Assembly (NCBI RefSeq): GCF_053078305.1
Contig: NZ_CP166879.1
Strand: one strand, 5' to 3'
DNA length: 64,000 bases
Part shown: positions 6,285 to 61,070 of the stretch, piece by piece
How positions within the stretch are numbered: the first letter of the stretch is position 1
Layout of the letters: each line of letters begins with the position of its first letter
Position numbers and translations under genes: made by a program
The notes under the pieces: generated by a model
The model's database searches: none
The model's input: the letters and a program-made list of their open reading frames with translations, nothing else
What the model was told of the DNA's origin: nothing

Positions 6285-6311
6285 AAAACAACAGGCACCC
6301 CGGAGGGTGCC
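6285..6311 (-). terminator. Intrinsic terminator-like hairpin ~45 nt upstream of J start
   Basis: Minus strand CAGGCACCC-TCCG-GGGTGCCTG followed by TTGTTTTT. Confidence 0.45.
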
Positions 6312-6327
6312 TGTGTCATGACGGAAT

Positions 6328-6488
6328 AAAATTTCTGAAATTCTTCACATTTCCGGCAATTGCCTGTAGCCACTATAATGACGCAGCGTTACAGTTTTTT
6401 TGCTCAATAAAAGCAATAATTATCAGACCTCCTTAAGGTGACTATTCGTCTCCCGTCAGTATCCGGCGATATTACGGGAGATTTTTTT
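6328..6488 (+). ncRNA. Candidate small RNA mini-cassette, copy 1 of 3 (promoter-like box to intrinsic terminator)
   Basis: Box AAATTTCTGAAATTCTTCACATTT, TATAAT at ~6374, hairpin CTCCCGT...ACGGGAG plus T7 at ~6449-6488; no convincing ORF. Confidence 0.3.
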
Positions 6489-6566
6489 GCTTCAGCCACA
6501 CCACAACATCCTGCTCATTTACGCCACTGGTACCCTGGCGGTCATCCGTTCTGTAAACCTGCGACA

Positions 6567-6722
6567 GAAAAAGTCTGAATTTCTTCACATTTTCTGTACG
6601 TTCCCGTGGCAGATATCATTCCGGGGCGTTACAGTTTTTTCGGGTCAATAAAAACAAAACTCCTTGAACGTTAATCTTCATCGGTTCTGTCCCGCAGTCT
6701 CCGGACTCTGCGGGATTTTTTT
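6567..6722 (+). ncRNA. Candidate small RNA mini-cassette, copy 2 of 3
   Basis: Same 5' box (AAGTCTGAATTTCTTCACATTTT), TATCAT at ~6614, hairpin CCCGCAG...CTGCGGG plus T-run at ~6690-6722. Confidence 0.3.
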
Positions 6723-6795
6723 ATCCCTTAACCCCGGCATGATGTTTTCTGTCTTCTGCCACAGATACCCGGCAAGCTCCCTGCACCTCTGCAGC

Positions 6796-6950
6796 AAAAA
6801 ATTTCTGAATTTCTTCACATTTTCGCAAAATCCATGTGGCGCTTATAATTTCGCTGCGTTAATGTTTTTCTGCCCAAAAAAATAACTCCATAACGTTAAT
6901 CTTCATCGTTATTTCCCGCAGCTCCGCTAACTCTGCGGGATTTTTTTTAT
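6796..6950 (+). ncRNA. Candidate small RNA mini-cassette, copy 3 of 3
   Basis: Same 5' box, consensus TATAAT at ~6844 with TTCGCA 16 nt upstream, hairpin CCCGCAG...CTGCGGG plus T8 at ~6916-6950, abutting the stop of I. Confidence 0.35.
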
Positions 6951-7633: not shown

Positions 7634-8274
7634 TTCTCTGAATACCTCTCCCGTTTACTCAGTTGTTCAGGTATATGGTGAAGCAGTTCACCGTTGCCAC
7701 AGTAAATGGCGGCATGATTCGGCACCGATGAACCAAAGCAGCACAGCAGGATATCGCCCGCCTGTGCACAGGACGGAGACACCCGGTAAAAGCCGTTGTC
7801 TGCCAGGTTGTCCAGGTACAGGTTCTGACCGTTGCGCCACCAGTCATCCTCACGCACAAAATCCGGCAGCGTTATCCCCGCCAGATGGTATGCATCCCGG
7901 AACAGGGTGTAACAGTCCGTCACACCGTGTTCAAAGCGCCGTCCGGTCAGGTGCGGCACACAGCGGAACCGGTGAATTTCACCCCGGCAGACCAGCCACC
8001 AGGGCAGGGCACTCTTTATCTGCAGCCGCCGGTCCGCCTCGCTCAGCCAGGGCAGACCACCGGGATGACTGTGGACCAGCGCCACAATCTCCCCCTGCAT
8101 CTGTGCCTGCAGCCAGTCTTCCGGTGTAATACGAAAATACGCCTCCGGCTCTGCGGAGATATTCACGCAGGGCTGGTACCGTTCGCCCTCCGGGGTGCTT
8201 ATCACGAAGCCGCACGACTCCGCTGGCGCACACCGCCGGGCATGCACCAGAATCGCTGATTCAGTCTGTGTCAT
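7531..8274 (-). CDS. K: Minor tail protein K
   Basis: Internal ATG at ~8274 in track ORF 7531..8535 gives MTQTESAILVHARRCAPAESCGFV...HSHPGG (lambda K-like). Confidence 0.85.
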   Translation of the reverse strand: MTQTESAILVHARRCAPAESCGFVISTPEGERYQPCVNISAEPEAYFRITPEDWLQAQMQGEIVALVHSHPGGLPWLSEADRRLQIKSALPWWLVCRGEIHRFRCVPHLTGRRFEHGVTDCYTLFRDAYHLAGITLPDFVREDDWWRNGQNLYLDNLADNGFYRVSPSCAQAGDILLCCFGSSVPNHAAIYCGNGELLHHIPEQLSKRERYSEKWQRRTHSVWRHRHWSASAFTGIYNDLVAASACM

Positions 8275-8284
8275 AAACCGGGAT

Positions 8285-8983
8285 TTACTGCGAAAGTTTA
8301 TTGATGGAAAGGAAACCGCCAAAATTGACCGCCATGCCGCGCATCTCACACCCGCGCATGCATTTACTGCATCTGTCCTTCCGGATATCCGTGGTAGGGT
8401 TGTCGAACTCATCCGCCACTGCCGGACCGTTATACCCGCACTCATCGCCCCGGTAATCCCACATACAGGTGTTCGCCAGCATGATGCGACCGGGAAACAG
8501 CGCCCCGTCCGTCTCCGTCGGTGTCGCCAGCACAAACGAGGCCGTCATGGCCGTCAGCGCTGATAACTGCTCCACCACCCACCGGTCCGTCAGCTCCTGC
8601 TCCGGGTCTGCCTCCGGATTCCCCGCCACAAAGTTCACCGCATCAAGAAAACGCGCATACACCCGGCGGCGGACCACCGTGGCACCCACCAGGCTCTGCA
8701 AATCCTCCGCCATCCCGGTGACAAGGCCGAAAAGATTGGACACCGTCAGCGACGGGCGGGCACTGCTGCCCTTTCCGTTCATCTCAAAGCCGCTGCCCTC
8801 AATCGGGTACGCCTGATATTCACGCCCCTGCCAGGTCACCGGCTCCCCTTTTTCATTCAGCTCATTGCAGAAAAAATACCGCTCACCGCCCTGCACCGTC
8901 AGGTCGATTTCCCAGAGCACCACCCGCGGTGACTGCTCTGACTTAACCGACTCGTTCAGGCTTTCTTCGTGAATATCCTGCAT
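8285..8983 (-). CDS. L: Minor tail protein L
   Basis: Internal ATG in track ORF 8285..9025 gives MQDIHEESLNE...GFLSINKLSQ, 232 aa as lambda L. Confidence 0.9.
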   Translation of the reverse strand: MQDIHEESLNESVKSEQSPRVVLWEIDLTVQGGERYFFCNELNEKGEPVTWQGREYQAYPIEGSGFEMNGKGSSARPSLTVSNLFGLVTGMAEDLQSLVGATVVRRRVYARFLDAVNFVAGNPEADPEQELTDRWVVEQLSALTAMTASFVLATPTETDGALFPGRIMLANTCMWDYRGDECGYNGPAVADEFDNPTTDIRKDRCSKCMRGCEMRGMAVNFGGFLSINKLSQ

Positions 8984-8994
8984 ATATCCGCCCA

Positions 8995-9019
8995 TAAAAA
9001 AGGGGCGCAGACGCGCCCC
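8995..9019 (-). terminator. Intrinsic terminator between porin moron and L
   Basis: Minus strand GGGGCGC-GTCT-GCGCCCC followed by TTTTT, just upstream of the L RBS. Confidence 0.5.
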
Positions 9020-9192
9020 GAACAATAAAAGTCCAATTTAAAATAAAACCAATAAAGGTAATAACAGAAAGTTAAATCAGCACATGCCAGATGGCAATTG
9101 CTGATCGCAGTGACCAATGAAAACTGTGTTTTCATTGATACAGGCCGCCTGTAAGGGCAGACGGCCCGTATTTATTAACTTATCAGCAATAA

Positions 9193-10347
9193 TCAGAACT
9201 GATAAGTCATACCCACAGCAACGATATTATCTGTCGCAACACCGGCTTTCCGGGTAAATTCACTTTCATCAATCAGGTTAATTTTATAATCAACATAGGT
9301 GGACATATTCTTGTTAAAGTAATAAGTCGCACCGACATCAATATATTTAACCAGATCCTGATCGCCATGGTTCACACCACCAACCATAACATCCTGTCCG
9401 CGGGACTGAAGGTAGGCAAGGGACGGGCGCAGACCAAAATCAAACTGATACTGAACAACGGCTTCGATATTCTGAGCTTTATCCGCAACACCTTGATCAC
9501 CAAAGGTCGTCATATTCTGGGTTTCAGAATACACTGCTGCCAGATACAGGTTATTGGCATCATATTTAAGACCAGTTCCCCAGAATTCAGCATGTTTACC
9601 TTTTGCCACACTACCTGAGTCAACTGTTTTTTCTCCAACCTTTTTACCTGATTCAGGATCAAGAACATCTGCAGTACCGTTCAACCCCTGAACCTGCTTA
9701 TCGGTACGATCTGACTTGGTATACGCAGCGACAAAACCAAAACCATCAAACTCATAGCTGGCCGAGAAACCATACCCGTCGCCATTAGCCTTCTGAAGGT
9801 CATCACGCTCATTTTTGCCCTGATACTGCGCCGCAAAATTCAGACCATCAACCAGTCCGAAGAAGTCTGTATTACGGTAAGTCAGGACACCGGAAGTTCG
9901 GGCCGTCATAAAGTTATCGGTCTGCGTCCAGCCATCACCACCAAACTCAGGCAGTACGTCAGTATATGATCCGACATCGTAAGCAATACCATAGTTACGT
10001 CCGTAATCAATGGTACCAACATCTGCAAATCTCAGACCTGCAAATGCCAGACGGGTTTTATTTCCCGCGGAACCTTCAGATTCCGTTTTGTTACCAGAGA
10101 ACTGGTATTCCCACTGACCAAATCCGGTCAGTTGATCATTAATCTGCGTTTCGCCTTTAAAGCCGAGACGAGCATAAGTCTGGTCTCCGTCATTACCTTT
10201 ATCATCCGAGAAGTAATGCAGAGCGGTTGCACGCCCGTAAAGATCCAGTTTATTACCATCTTTATTATAAACTTCTGCTGCCTGCGCCCCCGCAGCAAAC
10301 ATCACTGCCACTGCTACAGCAGAAAGTGCCACTGTCATTTTTTTCAT
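9193..10347 (-). CDS. OmpC/OmpF/NmpC-family general porin (prophage moron)
   Basis: 384 aa with signal peptide; [15 protein letters not shown]... and C-terminal ...YVDYKINL...F typical of enterobacterial 16-strand porins; AT-rich upstream region 10348-10545. Confidence 0.9.
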
Positions 10348-10545
10348 GATTTAATCCTTATTTAAACTGAACTATTCATGCATTCAGATGTCATGAACAA
10401 AAATTAAAATATTTTAATACAAATTCTTAGTTCAATTTATATTATGTAACAAAATGTAAATACAAGATCGATTTCGCACTTTCTGACAAGACAGATTAAA
10501 AATAATTAACAACTAAACAATAAAGAGTGATTTATAGGATAATTC

Positions 10546-10887
10546 TCATCTGACTACCTGCTCTATCGTGCAACTGAAATCACTGTACCGGGCGTTATCC
10601 GTAATACTCCACTCCCGGCACACCACCCTGACCGTCCGGTTATGTTTCGGGGGCTTCCACAAAAAAGCCCGGTAACCACCATGCCATGACAGAAACGCGG
10701 ACAGTGCCTCCCGCTCAGCATCCGTTGTCACCCGAAAAACCACCTGAAAGGTCTTCAGTTGCGCATTCAGTCCTGCCGGACGACGTTGCTGATAACCGTC
10801 GCCAAACTTCACCGTCACCACCGACGGTTTCTCCGTCACCTGCATCCCTTCCCGGGGACACCAGTGAAGGGTCTTAATCTCATCCAC
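10546..10887 (-). CDS. M: Minor tail protein M
   Basis: 113 aa; ...FGDGYQQRRPAGLNAQLKT...; immediately downstream of tape measure. Confidence 0.85.
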   Translation of the reverse strand: MDEIKTLHWCPREGMQVTEKPSVVTVKFGDGYQQRRPAGLNAQLKTFQVVFRVTTDAEREALSAFLSWHGGYRAFLWKPPKHNRTVRVVCREWSITDNARYSDFSCTIEQVVR

Positions 10888-31149: not shown

Positions 31150-31960
31150 TGCGGGCTTTTTTTATCCATAAGAAAGCCCCTCCGGAGAGGGGCTGGAGTA
31201 GCGCTATGTACCGTTCATTGCATGATGCCGGGTGCCTCCCGGTGAGTTCAGCCCGGTGCCACCGAACCCGCGTCATTCTCGCTAACGATCATCAGAGACC
31301 ATACCGTACACCAGCCGCCCCTCCGCACAGGGGGATTCATCATGCAGAAATTTTTTAACAAATTCTCAGTCGGGAAGACAACCTTCAACTGACTGAATTG
31401 TGAGCAACATAGCATTTAACGGGGAACCTGTTTTCTGCAGTAAAAAGGCCCACCGGAGCGGACGGGCCTGGAAGGATAGCGGTCATGTGATGCCGGTTTC
31501 CCGGTAACTCAGCACCGGTATCTGAGTCAACGTTTTCTCTACTGGGTCATTTCCGATACGCCCTGCCTGCTGACAGGCTTTCATCACATCTGAAAATATA
31601 GCACCCTGACTGATACTGTAGTACCCAAGGTTCCAGAAACTGTGATGTATCCGGCACAGAAAAGCCCCTCCGGAGAGGGGCTGACGCTGCGTATCTGTAT
31701 CATCATGCGCATGGTGCCGGGTGCCTCCCGGTGAGTTCAGTATCAGCACCTGAACCCGCACAGAAAGGATAAGGGATGTAACCAAACACCTGTCGCTGAT
31801 ATGCCCCTCCGCTCAGGGGGATTCACCATGCCAGTTTCTTTTAACAAACTCCCCGCAAATCAGACAACTGTCAACCGTCTGAATTGTGAGACATTTAAAA
31901 TTTTCGGGGCAACAGGAAGACAATCATCACGACACCGGCAACCAGCGACCGGCACCAGAT
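31150..31960. repeat. Two diverged copies (~490-bp spacing) of a structured non-coding element
   Basis: Shared segments AAGCCCCTCCGGAGAGGGGCT, TGCCGGGTGCCTCCCGGTGAGTTCAG, CCCCTCCGCxCAGGGGGATTCA, CTGAATTGTGAG at ~31174/31664, 31223/31713, 31317/31804, 31394/31879. Confidence 0.6.
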
Positions 31961-32956
31961 TTAACGTATGTGCACACAACCTGAACCGGCATCAAAAAAC
32001 AAACCGTGCACTGACAGAAAACGGGAAACCTCCGTCCGCTGATCATCACTCATTAAGGACCACACAAAGGCGTTATGCTCATCTTCAAGTTTCCGTCTTC
32101 TTGTTTGCCTTACAAGCAACTCAGCCGTCACCTGTACAATGTCAATGACCTCCTTCTCTTCAGCAATGTACGGCCTGTTCCAGTTGTCTGTGTTAATCTT
32201 CTCCGTCACCGGCGCTGACTTTTTGCAAGTTTCCCCATTAAACCCGACGCCATAAACAACAACATCATCGCTTTGCTTTTCGTTATCAATAATGACGAAT
32301 AATACAGAAACCGATGTATCAGCGAACCCGCCTGAAATCTGAACCAACTCAACAACGCGGTTGCCAAAATACTGACGCATTGCCAGCTCACCACGCCTGT
32401 AACCAACCCCGGGAAAGCACAAAAAAAATGAAAATCTTGCCTTCATGCTCGCCAGAACATAAAACGCGTCATCCAGAACACCGGAGGTCTTTTTATAAGG
32501 CATCATCGCTGAAATCTTCTCCCTGATATCCGCGCTCTGTGCTTTGTACTGTAGCGAAAAAGGCGGATTCATGATGACACAATCGAACGTGTCCGTGTCA
32601 CTGACATCATCGATGGCGTTGAAGAAATTTTCATTGACCGTCTTCACTGTGGCATCCGGGAAATTATCCGGGATATGCACCAACGGAGAGGCCTGTATAT
32701 CCACAGCATACAGACTTCCCACCGTGAGAAACTGCTCCAGTTGCCCGGAGCCACACGCACCATCAAAAATACTCAGGGGCAGATCACCACAATATTCCCG
32801 CACTTTTTCAGCGACAAACCGACGCAAAGGAACGGACGTGATGTACTCTGCGTATTTTCTGGCGACATCGCGATTATTGGACTCCTGAAAAACCATTTGT
32901 GAAAGGCTCTGTGGTTGATATGCGCCGGGCGTGGCGCGGAGGCAAAAAAGGCCCAC
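31961..32956 (-). CDS. DNA N6-adenine methyltransferase, gamma-like motif order (orphan)
   Basis: FDGACGSGQL (motif I) followed by VIMNPPF (motif IV); start may be internal at ~32896. Confidence 0.7.
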   Translation of the reverse strand: MGLFCLRATPGAYQPQSLSQMVFQESNNRDVARKYAEYITSVPLRRFVAEKVREYCGDLPLSIFDGACGSGQLEQFLTVGSLYAVDIQASPLVHIPDNFPDATVKTVNENFFNAIDDVSDTDTFDCVIMNPPFSLQYKAQSADIREKISAMMPYKKTSGVLDDAFYVLASMKARFSFFLCFPGVGYRRGELAMRQYFGNRVVELVQISGGFADTSVSVLFVIIDNEKQSDDVVVYGVGFNGETCKKSAPVTEKINTDNWNRPYIAEEKEVIDIVQVTAELLVRQTRRRKLEDEHNAFVWSLMSDDQRTEVSRFLSVHGLFFDAGSGCVHIR

Positions 32957-32981: not shown

Positions 32982-33058
32982 TGGTGCGTTGTACTGGATT
33001 CGAACCAGTGACCGATTGCTTAGAAGGCAATTGCTCTGTCCGGCTGAGCTAACAACGC
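32982..33058 (-). tRNA. argO: tRNA-Arg (anticodon TCT), argO-like
   Basis: Cloverleaf read by eye; anticodon loop CTTCTAA; GGTTCGAATCC T-arm; CCA end. Confidence 0.8.
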
Positions 33059-33071
33059 AGTGTACAGATAA

Positions 33072-33148
33072 TGGACCGCCATCGAGGACTCGAACCCCGC
33101 GCAACCAGCTTCGAAGGCTGGCGCTCTATCCCGATGAGCTAATGGCGG
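33072..33148 (-). tRNA. argN: tRNA-Arg (anticodon TCG), argN-like
   Basis: Anticodon loop CTTCGAA; GGTTCGAGTCC T-arm. Confidence 0.75.
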
Positions 33149-33155
33149 TATGTGA

Positions 33156-33231
33156 TGGTGGCCCTTGCTGGATTTGAACCAGCGACCTGGCGATTATGAG
33201 TCGCTCGCTCTCACCACTGAGCTAAAGGGCC
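33156..33231 (-). tRNA. ileZ: tRNA with CAT anticodon, ileX-like (tRNA-Ile2), ileZ-like
   Basis: GGCCCTTTAGCTCAGTGG...GACTCATAATCGC...GGTTCAAATCC...CCA; close to E. coli ileX. Confidence 0.75.
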
Positions 33232-38556: not shown

Positions 38557-38712
38557 TTACTCCTCAGGTTCGTAAGCTGTGAAGACAGCGACCTCCGTCT
38601 GGCCGGTTCGGATTCGTACCTCGCAGAGGTCTTTCCTCGTTACCAGTGCCGTCACTATGACGGTTAAACAGATGACGATCAGGGCGATTAACATCGCCTT
38701 TTGCTGCTTCAT
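38557..38712 (-). CDS. hokD: Hok-family type I toxin (HokD/RelF-like)
   Basis: MKQQKAMLIALIVICLTVIVTALVTRKDLCEVRIRTGQTEVAVFTAYEPEE, internal start of track ORF (a mok-like upstream extension). Confidence 0.9.
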   Translation of the reverse strand: MKQQKAMLIALIVICLTVIVTALVTRKDLCEVRIRTGQTEVAVFTAYEPEE

Positions 38713-38983
38713 AGCCTGCTTCTCCTTGCCTTTCGGCACGTAAGAGGCTAACCTACATTTGTGAGACATAGATTGGGCCTCAGATTAATGTTAAGCGTCT
38801 TGCAGGACGCGAAATGTTAACTGGGGCTTTTCTCTATCTGCCTTTTGGTGTTCATGCCTGAGACAGATAGCCTCAAGCACCCGCAGCGATTTTACAGAAA
38901 TAAGTTATTATTTTCTATCTCACCCTTCACTTATCTCATTCCTAGCTATACTCATCGTTCACACAACATTAAAGGGCATAAAA

Positions 38984-45991: not shown

Positions 45992-46249
45992 TTAGCACCA
46001 GTAAAAACAGGTTGCCACTGGTTAATTTACCCTGAAAAGTCAGGGCATAACACGAAAGCGCACGGAGAAGCTCGTCTCTCTGTACTTTGTCGCTAAATTT
46101 AATTCGACCGTGCGCTTCCGGTTGTGGCAATCCGCGAAATGGCGCGGCGGTAAGTATGGCTGGGGTTTCCTCCATTGCTCCAGAAAATGCACCGGGTTGT
46201 CAGGTTGACCATACGCTTAAGTGACAGCCCCGCCACAATACCCATGTGT

Positions 46250-46300
46250 AGTCTTTGGTGGCATCAGTTCTACTCCGTGACTGCTCTGCCACCCTTTTTA
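46250..46300 (+). ncRNA. dicF: DicF-like small RNA
   Basis: ...TGGTGGCATCAGTTCTACTCCGTGACTGCTCTGCCACCC followed by TTTTT; similar to my recollection of E. coli DicF with terminal hairpin. Confidence 0.55.
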
Positions 46301-46788
46301 AAGTGAATTTTGTGATGCGGTGAATGCGGCTAAGCGCACGCGGAACAGTTAAAACCGTAAAGTGGTCTTTTACGGGGCGTAACGGGCATACTTCTGTATT
46401 CCGGCGTTAATTGTTAACTGGTTAACGTCACCTGGAGGCACCAGGCACTGCATCAACAAAGTTCACTTCGGTGATGAAGGGTAAGAGAAAATGTTGAATG
46501 TAGCTATTGAAAACCAGAACGGGTGGAATTATAGTGCACCTGCACCTCATAAAACGGGTGCCGGGCGTGGAAACCCGATGATGATCAACGCGCATAACCG
46601 CGCTCAGGCGGTTTTTTTTATGCGTCAAGCACAGCCACATTCAAATTATGGTGGGGCGTGCAGGGCAGCTGCAAGGCTGGCCGGCTCCGTTGGTCACCGG
46701 TATTTCCACCCCTGTACGTCTCACCACCTTTATGGTCGTGGAAAACCTCGGTGGTGAGTTATTTAAACTGATCAACGAGGCTGCCATC

Positions 46789-50319: not shown

Positions 50320-50523
50320 ATGAGCAGCTTATTTTTAACCGAAGATGAATTGCTAATATTAACGGGCTGCAAATATGCAAGCCACCAGCGCAACTGGTTA
50401 ATAAAAAATGGGCTTCCGTTCTATACCAATCGTAGTGGAAAACCGATCGTCAGTCGGGAACTGTTTACCTGTAGAAACACTTTACCACCACGTGAGGCTG
50501 AACCTGATTTCGGTGCGATCTAA
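50320..50523 (+). CDS. Excisionase-like protein (DUF4224-like)
   Basis: 67 aa immediately upstream of integrase; ...LTEDELLILTGCKYASHQRNWLIKNGLPF... Confidence 0.5.
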   Translation: MSSLFLTEDELLILTGCKYASHQRNWLIKNGLPFYTNRSGKPIVSRELFTCRNTLPPREAEPDFGAI

Positions 50524-51548
50524 TGGGAAGACGAAGGAAAAATCCCGAACACGAAAAATTACCGCCAAAGGTATACCCCAATAAATATAGTTATGTATGG
50601 AAACCGACATCCAGAGAATCTGTAACCTTAACTGCAATCGAGGATGGTTTAGCCGCATTATGGAAAAAGTACGAAGAAACAATTAACCATCGCGATCGGG
50701 CAATGACATTTGGGCGTTTGTGGGAAAAATTTCTCGCCAGCGCCTATTACAGCGATCTTAGTCCCAGAACGCAAAAAGATTATCTGCAACATCAAAAAAA
50801 GCTGCTGGCCGTATTCGGTAAGGTGCTGGCCGATTCTGTAAAACCAGAGCACATCAGACGATACATGGACAAAAGGGGCGAGCAGAGTAAAACGCAGGCA
50901 AACCATGAAAAAAGCAGCATGTCACGCGTTTACAGTTGGGGGTATGAACGAGGGTATGTAAAGGCTAATCCTTGTGCCGGTGTAAGTAAATTCAAGGCCA
51001 AAAACCGAGAGCGCTATGTGACTGACAAAGAATACCAGGCCGTATTAAGCGTGGCTCCTGTGCCTGTTTTTATCGCAATGGAAATTGCATACCTGTGCGC
51101 AGCAAGGATTTCCGATGTGTTGTCTCTGAAATGGGAACAGATCGGAAACGACGGGATCTTTATCCAGCAAGGTAAAACAGGAAAGAAACAGATAAAAGCC
51201 TGGAGTCCCCGTCTGCAATCAGTTATAGAAAAAGCTAAACAGCTACCCAAGTCAGCCTATGTAATCAGCAATCAGTACGGCAACCGTTACATGTATAAAG
51301 GATTTAATGAAATGTGGGTTGAGGCAAGAAATTTGGCTGGACAAATATCAGGGATCGCGACGGATTTTACATTCCATGACCTTAAAGCCAAGGGGATATC
51401 AGATTACGAAGGTAGTAGCCGGGATAAGCAACTTTTCTCTGGTCACAAGACCGAAGGACAGGTGCTAATCTATGATAGAAAAGTAAAGATCTCACCCACA
51501 CTGGATGTACCATTACCCCAGAATATTCCAACAAAATATTCCAAGTAA
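50523..51548 (+). CDS. int: Tyrosine integrase
   Basis: 341 aa; phage integrase family; adjacent to tRNA 3' end. Confidence 0.9.
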   Translation: MGRRRKNPEHEKLPPKVYPNKYSYVWKPTSRESVTLTAIEDGLAALWKKYEETINHRDRAMTFGRLWEKFLASAYYSDLSPRTQKDYLQHQKKLLAVFGKVLADSVKPEHIRRYMDKRGEQSKTQANHEKSSMSRVYSWGYERGYVKANPCAGVSKFKAKNRERYVTDKEYQAVLSVAPVPVFIAMEIAYLCAARISDVLSLKWEQIGNDGIFIQQGKTGKKQIKAWSPRLQSVIEKAKQLPKSAYVISNQYGNRYMYKGFNEMWVEARNLAGQISGIATDFTFHDLKAKGISDYEGSSRDKQLFSGHKTEGQVLIYDRKVKISPTLDVPLPQNIPTKYSK

Positions 51549-51600: not shown

Positions 51601-51690
51601 TGGTGGAGAGAGGGGGATTTGAACCCCCGGTGGAGTTGCCCCCACTCCGGTTTTCGAGACCGGTCCGTTCAGCCGCTCCGGCATCTCTCC
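51601..51690 (-). tRNA. serU: tRNA-Ser (anticodon CGA), serU-like; prophage attachment site
   Basis: GGAGAGATGCCGGAGCGGCTGAACGGACCGGTCTCGAAAACCGG...GGTTCAAATCCCCC...CCA read from minus strand. Confidence 0.85.
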
Positions 51691-52757: not shown

Positions 52758-53069
52758 AATTCTAAAAATTCGCTTCTTAGCGCAATGTCACTAACCTTAG
52801 TTGAACATTGTTTTTTAACGGATAGCGGGTTTTTAACATCTTAAGCGCCCTCGACCTTTATGGTTGAGGGCGTTTTGCTATGAATGCCATCACCATTTTC
52901 CCCTCGATTATAAAACTTGAGTTATTCAGTAGTCTCCCCTCTTGCAACTCACACCCAAAACTGCCTAACGAAAAGTTATTAATTTTCAATCATATTGCTA
53001 TCAGGATTTACATTTTTTCGCTGTGCTAGAAAGGGCGCATTTATGTTAGCTCGTTCAGGGAAGGTAAGC

Positions 53070-61070
<8,001 letters not shown>

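Follow-up and report, generated by a model that had tools for sequence, protein, structure and literature searches.

A 1,562-bp cassette that occupies positions 8984-10545 on the minus strand, from the stop codon of tail gene M to the ATG of tail gene L, was identified in a prophage within a stretch of 64,000 nucleotides of contig NZ_CP166879.1 (assembly GCF_053078305.1), which is called the window below. The cassette is probably a moron of the NmpC/Lc-IpeX kind, self-contained and serving a porin swap, that entered a lambda-type tail operon between M and L. This reading is based on the anatomy of the insertion, the identity of the porin, the conserved RNA structure of its 3' untranslated region (3'UTR), the homology of this region to the nmpC/ipeX 3'UTRs and its complementarity to ompC. 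A phage porin followed by an IpeX-type 3'UTR is an already known kind of element. The literature was searched for "phage porin" morons and for porins located between tail genes, and no description of the M-L cassette was found; the same applies to the M-L porin subgroup, the site within the tail operon, the additional RNA segment that precedes the terminator and an explicit pairing model. The features of the cassette and its flanks are as follows, in window coordinates:

8285-8983, minus strand: tail gene L (TIGR01600 phage_tail_L, 376 bits), the downstream flank of the insertion
8984-8995, minus strand: L leader with a putative replacement ribosome-binding site, AUGGGCGGAUAU then the L AUG, carried by the cassette
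8996-9019, minus strand: intrinsic terminator GGGGCGC-GUCU-GCGCCCC plus U6, from a terminator scan (DNA GGGGCGCGTCTGCGCCCC followed by TTTTTT, 7 G-C pairs)
9020-9044, minus strand: second unpaired module of the 3'UTR, including UUUAAAUUGGAC (9031-9042)
9045-9076, minus strand: conserved unpaired "seed" UUUAACUUUCUGUUAUUACCUUUAUUGGUUUU, unpaired in the minimum free energy (MFE) and consensus folds
9075-9106, minus strand: hairpin 3 of the 3'UTR, outer stem of 7-8 bp plus an inner stem (1 compensatory pair, 98% of cells paired)
9115-9137, minus strand: hairpin 2, 10 bp (4 compensatory double-change pairs, 100% of cells paired)
9138-9171, minus strand: hairpin 1, 14 bp (3 compensatory double-change pairs, 99% of cells paired)
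9193-10347, minus strand: porin coding sequence, 384 aa, a 16-strand general porin of the NmpC/Lc type (stop codon 9193-9195)
10348-10545, minus strand: putative 5' regulatory region, 198 bp, GC content about 0.28, absent from the empty M/L junction
10406-10435, minus strand: putative sigma-70 promoter, TTGAAC (10430-10435), 18-nt spacer, TATTTT (10406-10411)
10441-10460, minus strand: OmpR-box-like site TTTACATTTTGTTACATAAT, a pattern match and candidate for OmpR binding
10546-10887, minus strand: tail gene M, 113 aa, from the list of open reading frames (ORFs), the upstream flank of the insertion (stop codon TGA, 10546-10548)

The tail genes are arranged on the minus strand in the order H (10880-14122), M, L and then K, I and J. 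The DNA of M was 95-97% identical to minor tail protein genes of Shiga toxin (Stx) phages, and L is also annotated in RefSeq at the identical locus. When positions 8900-10650 were compared with 50,697 phage records using megablast, 121 records, mostly Stx phages, matched at the M and L ends only (coverage 10%, identity 94-97%), and in the empty site of phage BP-4795 the ATG of L overlaps the stop codon of M (CTGATGCAG; junction read as …GAACTGATGCAGGAT…). These empty sites bear out the proposal of an earlier note on this DNA that a porin gene had been inserted between M and L. The note had further described an AT-rich 5' region of about 200 bp and a 3' region of about 190 nt with hairpins and a terminator next to L, and both are present, the latter measuring 197 nt (9192-8996) from the porin stop codon to the end of the T-run and leaving 12 nt between the U6 end of the terminator and the L ATG (8983). 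The GC content was 0.28-0.48 inside the cassette compared with 0.53-0.67 in M, L, K and H, and the terminator stem was unchanged in all cassette variants. Extra DNA between genes that are adjacent in relatives, a base composition unlike that of the surrounding phage genes and a downstream terminator of its own are marks of a moron in the sense of Hendrix and Juhala (Juhala et al. 2000, as rendered in a citing paper), which further include a promoter active in the lysogen, for which the cassette offers candidate sites, and they support the term as used in the note. The 12-nt leader of L was kept as TATGGGYGGA among the cassette variants, and we infer that this end of the cassette supplies L with a GGCGG-type ribosome-binding site in place of the translational coupling to M that the insertion removed.

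The cassette shares with the lambdoid morons lom and bor of lambda and gp15 of HK97 a terminator of its own, a putative promoter, a deviant base composition and a site between genes that are adjacent in relatives. It differs from these in its cargo, a porin together with a 3'UTR of predicted riboregulatory function, and in that it splits the translationally coupled M/L pair, for which the new ribosome-binding site would substitute.

The porin is full-length with a signal peptide, as had been proposed. It scored 507.9 bits against the OmpC-subfamily model NF007841 of NCBIfam (cutoff 484), its scores for the PhoE and OmpF equivalog models were below their cutoffs, and residues 24-384 aligned end to end with whole chains of solved OmpC, OmpK36 and OmpF structures (3upg, 6rck and others; E-values down to 2.6e-131). 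Residues 1-23 constitute the signal peptide (ending …AQA, with the mature protein starting AEVYNK), and both the PEFGGD eyelet motif in loop L3 and a C-terminal YQF were present. The family cutoff, signal peptide, L3 motif and C-terminal aromatic residue thus identify a general diffusion porin. In pairwise comparisons the window porin was 68% identical to K-12 NmpC, 58-59% to OmpC, 55-57% to OmpF and 58-59% to OmpN, and across the M-L variants the identity was 68-71% to NmpC as compared to 55-62% to OmpC, OmpF and OmpN. The Lc/NmpC-type porins found in 40 phage records (annotated as NmpC, OmpD or porin) were 67-69% identical to it. The highest identity is therefore to phage-borne porins of the NmpC/Lc subfamily, and Lc and NmpC, which the note had named as examples of phage porins, are the closest relatives (67-71%). 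The label "OmpC-family" holds in the broad sense of NF007841 only, the nearest relatives being NmpC/Lc and not OmpC. The RefSeq label "porin OmpC" derives from the subfamily model, as applied by the Prokaryotic Genome Annotation Pipeline, and given the identities to K-12 OmpC and NmpC the porin was rejected as an OmpC orthologue.

Within this subfamily the M-L porins form a subgroup of their own (80-100% identical internally), and this type was absent from the 50,697 phage records, in which 42 records with homologues were found, all with at most 69% identity. The reading frame was intact in all eight sequenced variants. Variation in length was almost confined to a hypervariable surface loop at about residues 220-250 (window 9600-9700), with an insertion of 0-25 residues, and many of the substitutions also fell there, whereas the barrel strands, eyelet and signal peptide were conserved among the variants.

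The 3'UTR folds much more stably than its shuffled counterparts (MFE -82.8 kcal/mol as compared to -48.1 ± 4.2 for 200 dinucleotide shuffles; z = -8.3, 0/200). Among eight variants with identities down to 73%, 99.3% of the pair cells were standard pairs and 8 pairs were compensated (0/500 shuffles), statistics that are indicative and not definitive because they derive from about four to five independent lineages. If the pairing registers were slid, the paired fraction dropped to 36-46%. Between hairpin 3 and the terminator an unpaired stretch of about 59 nt was found (9078-9020), with an RNase E-like site (GA/UUU) just after hairpin 3. No other part of the 3'UTR is conserved as well as this stretch, which reads GAUUUAAYUUUC..UUAUUACCUUYAU, and the hairpin stems drift with compensation. 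No Rfam family matched in the cassette, either in a search of 8000-11500 at E <= 1 or in a search of the whole window at the gathering threshold. In the second unpaired module, UUUAAAUUGGAC (9031-9042) is complementary to GUUCAGUUUAAA (10361-10372) in the porin's own 5'UTR; this pairing was borderline (8/300 shuffles; change in free energy on cofolding, ddG, -12.4), with 12 bp kept in type C cassettes, including one doubly compensated position, and 8 bp in the other types.

A covariance model (R1), built from the M-L variants only and run without filters against 35.7 kb from unrelated loci, found the nmpC 3'UTRs at 39.9-49.8 bits, and the next match scored 12.6 bits; the corresponding E-values of 3.3e-7 to 2.5e-9 are rough because the calibration was shortened. 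The best match was P7 (49.8 bits, E = 2.5e-9), with DLP12 at 41.4 bits (E = 1.6e-7) and the 3'UTRs of PhiR30_1 and PhiR49_1 at 40-42 bits. The 3'UTRs of K-12 nmpC, PhiR49_1, PhiR30_1, P7 and phi456 have the same order of elements, namely three hairpins, an A/U-rich unpaired segment that holds (C/A)UGUUAU..AUUACC(C)UUU..AUU, and a terminator GGGGCG…CGCCCC-U. The M-L 3'UTR is thus located between a phage porin stop codon and a Rho-independent terminator, as expected for an IpeX-type RNA, and is homologous in sequence and structure to the nmpC/lc 3'UTR. Since R1 retrieves the nmpC 3'UTRs well above a background of at most 12.6 bits, the suggestion that a 3' RNA exists in the manner of IpeX can be taken as homology, beyond analogy, and it is as homology only that it was confirmed. 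Rfam 15 gave no match at the gathering threshold on the DLP12 nmpC 3'UTR of K-12 and holds no IpeX family, and no curated family was therefore usable for the comparison.

The comparison with the lc and nmpC loci that the earlier note had recommended showed that both the porin and the 3'UTR are related to this type. In addition to the same porin subfamily (68-71% identity), the signal peptide MKK(L/M)TVA(I/L)SAVA is the same, as is the layout of three hairpins, a seed CUGUUAU..AUUACC(C)UUUAUU and the GGGGCG..CGCCCC-U terminator, and the DLP12 nmpC seed and the window seed both rank the ompC initiation region first. In contrast, nmpC/lc in lambdoid phages are located in the Q-S region, antisense to Q and S, whereas the cassette is located at the M/L junction and is co-directional with late transcription. 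No alignment of the hairpins is possible by primary sequence, the M-L 3'UTR has about 25 nt extra between seed and terminator, the M-L porin has a long hypervariable loop insertion, and the cassette must supply a new ribosome-binding site for L. The nmpC of the P1-like phages P7 and phi456 shares with the window 3'UTR AUUUAACUU..UGUUAU..AUUACCUUU and UAUUGUU-GGGGCGC as well as the extra pre-terminator segment, but it lies between odaA and ssb and its porin is 67% identical. For nmpC-ipeX of DLP12 and lc of PA-2, a porin gene followed by a 3'UTR RNA that inhibits OmpC/OmpF has been described (Castillo-Keller et al. 2006, as summarized in citing papers), and the ipeX region was reported to repress OmpC and OmpF (PMC12197685; PMC5069750).

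The window seed can pair with the ompC mRNA from -36 to -5, with 28 bp in three predicted helices: 15 bp (two of them G-U) at -19..-5, covering the GAGGG Shine-Dalgarno sequence at -13..-9, 8 bp at -30..-23 and 5 bp at -36..-32, in which the seed elements CUGUUAU and CCUUUAUU take part. Of the 5,426 complete E. coli genomes, 5,360 carried an ompC 5'UTR with 99% identity or more, and K-12 ompC is therefore a fair proxy for the host gene. As whole 3'UTRs run against 115-nt targets gave unrealistically long RNAduplex structures and weak z-scores, the unpaired stretch or a 34-nt seed was used. For the 59-nt stretch the predicted free energy (dG) with ompC was -35.0 kcal/mol as compared to -19.9 ± 3.6 for 300 shuffles (0/300), and the corresponding values were -30.8 for the MicC-ompC control and -26.7 for the K-12 nmpC 3'UTR (0/300 shuffles). 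When the 34-nt seed was run against a background of 8,706 real-sequence windows, its best non-self target was the ompC initiation region (-27.8), which also came first among non-self targets when MicC (-26.5) or the K-12 nmpC seed (-26.7) was used. When an 81-nt 3' fragment was cofolded with ompC, all hairpins were kept and the intermolecular helix of 15+8+5 bp was formed (ddG -17.1 kcal/mol); the whole 3'UTR gave a ddG of -15.8. With ompF the ddG was -15.0, the seed core UUAUUACCUU pairing with AGGGUAAUAA, a predicted 10-bp helix in the ompF Shine-Dalgarno region. The K-12 nmpC 3'UTR itself has a 15+9-bp complementarity to ompC.

As observations on the relatives, AACCUUCUGUUAUAU and CCUUUAUUU in the K-12 nmpC 3'UTR (locus L012, 2362-2531, minus strand) are complementary to ompC -21..-7 and -31..-23, respectively, and the seed of P7 (locus L048, 2614-2800) and phi456, UUAUUUAUUACC, forms a perfect 12-mer match with the ompF Shine-Dalgarno-to-AUG region.

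The small RNA MicC (RF00121) resembles the window seed (GUUAUAUGCCUUUAUUG at the MicC 5' end compared with GUUAUUACCUUUAUUG), is likewise linked to a porin gene and pairs with the same ompC leader segment at a similar predicted energy. MicC is, however, encoded by a gene of its own, which is transcribed divergently from ompN, and carries its seed at the 5' end, whereas the cassette element is a 3'UTR. Membership of the MicC family was rejected, with no RF00121 match at E <= 1 in 8000-11500 and a K-12 micC control that scored 125 bits.

The strongest competitor to the porin-swap reading, which we nevertheless regard as unlikely, is that the 3'UTR is a cis-acting stability and termination module only, with hairpins that shield the porin mRNA from 3' exonucleases and a terminator that insulates the tail genes, and that the likeness to the ompC leader is a relic of porin-locus sequences or an A/U-rich coincidence without regulation in trans. 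The hairpins and the terminator would suffice to account for the strong folding and the covariation, the A/U-rich seed scores strongly on several off-targets, and pairing with ompC is weaker in cassette types C and D. It is less easily reconciled with the unpaired stretch being the best-conserved part while the stems drift, or with the recurrence of the seed core next to otherwise unrelated hairpin sequences in DLP12, P7 and lambdoid phages, each time in the 3'UTR of nmpC. Furthermore, no non-self target scored better than the ompC initiation region, as was also the case for MicC, and the repression of OmpC and OmpF that was reported concerns the homologous ipeX region.

The 5' region contains conserved blocks across the seven aligned variants, and one of these, TTTACATTTTGTTACAT (10460-10444), lies within the OmpR-box-like site. 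The 17-mer pattern TTTACATTTTGWWACAT occurred once in the 64-kb window (0.02 expected), and the only other exact match in the unrelated loci was the C1 OmpR site of K-12 ompC (locus L011, 1913-1929). The OmpR-box-like site was also the best local alignment to the ompC upstream region (20/23) and to the ompF F1 region (16/18). The TTGAAC and TATTTT hexamers were kept in 7/7 aligned variants. Control by OmpR and a transcription start downstream of these hexamers are suggested by such matches and would apply to the cassette promoter if the sites are functional.

If the cassette works as proposed, an AT-rich promoter belonging to the cassette, probably responsive to OmpR, would drive transcription of the porin in a lysogen, and the strong terminator would end transcription so that the tail genes L-K-I-J stay silent. 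The porin would be exported and assemble in the outer membrane, and the 3'UTR, in the full transcript or in a processed fragment of about 80 nt, would expose the unpaired seed. The seed may then pair with the host ompC mRNA at -36 to -5 and block its Shine-Dalgarno sequence, more weakly also the Shine-Dalgarno region of ompF, in a manner that may depend on Hfq. OmpC, and perhaps OmpF, would thereby be lowered and give way to the phage porin, a porin swap of the type reported for PA-2/Lc, with changes in surface receptors, antigenicity and permeability. Because it is co-directional with the late operon, the cassette would also be part of the late tail transcript, and during lytic growth the Q-modified RNA polymerase would read through the terminator and L would be translated from the ribosome-binding site of the cassette.

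Several points weigh against this scheme. The covariation comes from few lineages, as noted above. The sigma-70 scan of the 5' region gave no minus-strand site at >=9/12, and the proposed promoter TTGAAC-N18-TATTTT matches the consensus at 8/12 only and for this reason was not reported by the scan. The seed is A/U-rich, and unrelated windows can also score strongly with it, among them one in the coding sequence of the porin itself (-25.1, rank 4); when the full 59-nt stretch was run against 80-nt windows ompC ranked 6th of 4,348. In types C and D (loci L004, L005 and L009) CUGUUAU is replaced by CAUUUUAU and the pairing with ompC is weaker (-24 to -27). The mechanism of IpeX is unsettled in the literature and is said not to rely on simple complementarity. 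The original ipeX paper reportedly found no complementarity to ompC and an Hfq-independent action on ompC.

That the cassette is instead a silent passenger, kept off for example by H-NS bound to the AT-rich leader, without a role in the lysogen and moved by recombination of tail modules, appears improbable. The lack of a consensus promoter and the 28% GC of the leader, which is typical of H-NS-bound DNA, would fit such a passenger, as would a copy in a decayed prophage remnant flanked by insertion sequence (IS) fragments. A silent gene would on the other hand hardly be expected to keep its reading frame intact in 8/8 variants, to concentrate its changes in one surface loop and to conserve both the blocks of the promoter region and the RNA structure, and in a lysogen of strain LF82 the NmpC-type porin of the Perceval prophage was expressed about 10-fold over the local background (PMC9928086). 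Still less probable is that the cassette acts mainly in lytic growth, co-transcribed from pR' and reshaping the envelope of the dying cell (for example by reducing re-adsorption of progeny to debris or vesicles if OmpC is the phage receptor), for although it is co-directional with the late operon, unlike the antisense nmpC/lc, and read-through transcripts must contain it, a promoter-like region of its own and a strong terminator are hallmarks of morons expressed in the lysogen.

Beyond the porin-swap reading of this cassette, a wider interpretation is put forward only tentatively, namely that the 3'UTRs of phage porins are plain antisense regulators whose seeds have diversified, with the window type and DLP12 directed at ompC, P7 at ompF and the second module of the M-L type at the porin's own 5'UTR. 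The P7 seed, for which the ompF initiation region came first (-23.4) and ahead of ompC, points to such diversification among members of the family.

The whole cassette was found in 108 of the 5,426 complete E. coli genomes, its 3' region in 110 and its 5' region in 92, and many among the listed cassette matches were isolates of Shiga toxin-producing E. coli from humans and cattle. The M-L position was kept in every locus examined, including seven further loci in which the 3' region was 73-100% identical, and the start of L followed the cassette in 41/41 copies retrieved. A seed pattern, GATTTAAYTTTCN{2,3}TTATTACCTT, was found in 32 viral contigs representing four or five sequence types, with the L start next in all of them. 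The same pattern gave 0 matches among the species-representative genomes of GTDB, a result that says nothing on other species because the element is accessory, being present in about 2% of E. coli genomes.

Two of these copies have unusual surroundings. In strain DETEC-P1056 (locus L009, 3598-6656) the cassette lies in a decayed prophage remnant with the porin ORF intact (373 aa), flanked by a tape-measure fragment, a frameshifted L and IS66-type fragments. In strain LZHX12 (locus L004, 4957-6981) an extra block lies between L and K, just downstream of the porin cassette, encoding a ClpP-like protease, an Arc-family repressor, YlcI/YnfO and a P22AR-domain pseudogene, so that the operon has a second site of moron insertion.

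Elsewhere in the window, the gap between I and J (6291-6890) has three direct repeats of about 230 bp with 69-73% identity (cores 6319-6399, 6559-6639 and 6789-6869) and contained no long ORF and no Rfam match; similar unannotated I-J gaps were seen in L001, L003 and other loci. Three tRNAs and STnc100 are located in the Q-S region, and Rfam matches elsewhere in the prophage were STnc100 (twice), sok, DicF, IsrK, C4 antisense RNA and the three-tRNA cluster (match coordinates 31164-31374, 31654-31860, 38707-38882, 46243-46731 and 32985-33231). Just downstream of the three tRNAs, which is the position of stx in Stx phages, an ORF of 331 aa (31961-32956, minus strand) showed weak similarity to N6-adenine methyltransferase (hsdM-like, E = 5.6e-6). 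It is methyltransferase-like and not Stx, and identification as an Stx-converting prophage was thus rejected. The prophage end is marked by an integrase-like ORF (50523-51548) and a tRNA (51604-51690), and a 2,691-aa ORF (52995-61070, plus strand) lies outside it.

The cassette is a case in which a moron can split a coupled pair of tail genes, given a terminator that Q would read through and a ribosome-binding site that would serve as replacement. It also offers a concrete pairing model for the IpeX family, with a 15-bp helix over the ompC Shine-Dalgarno sequence and an 8-9-bp helix upstream. If the antisense interpretation is true, a single transcript would link the making of the phage porin to the loss of the host porin, and base-pairing would account for a mode of action that has been presented as independent of simple complementarity. 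Should the cassette function as predicted, the roughly 2% of sequenced E. coli with a copy could exchange a major surface porin for a phage porin with a hypervariable surface loop, with effects on antibiotic permeability, on antigenicity and on sensitivity to phages and colicins that depend on OmpC.

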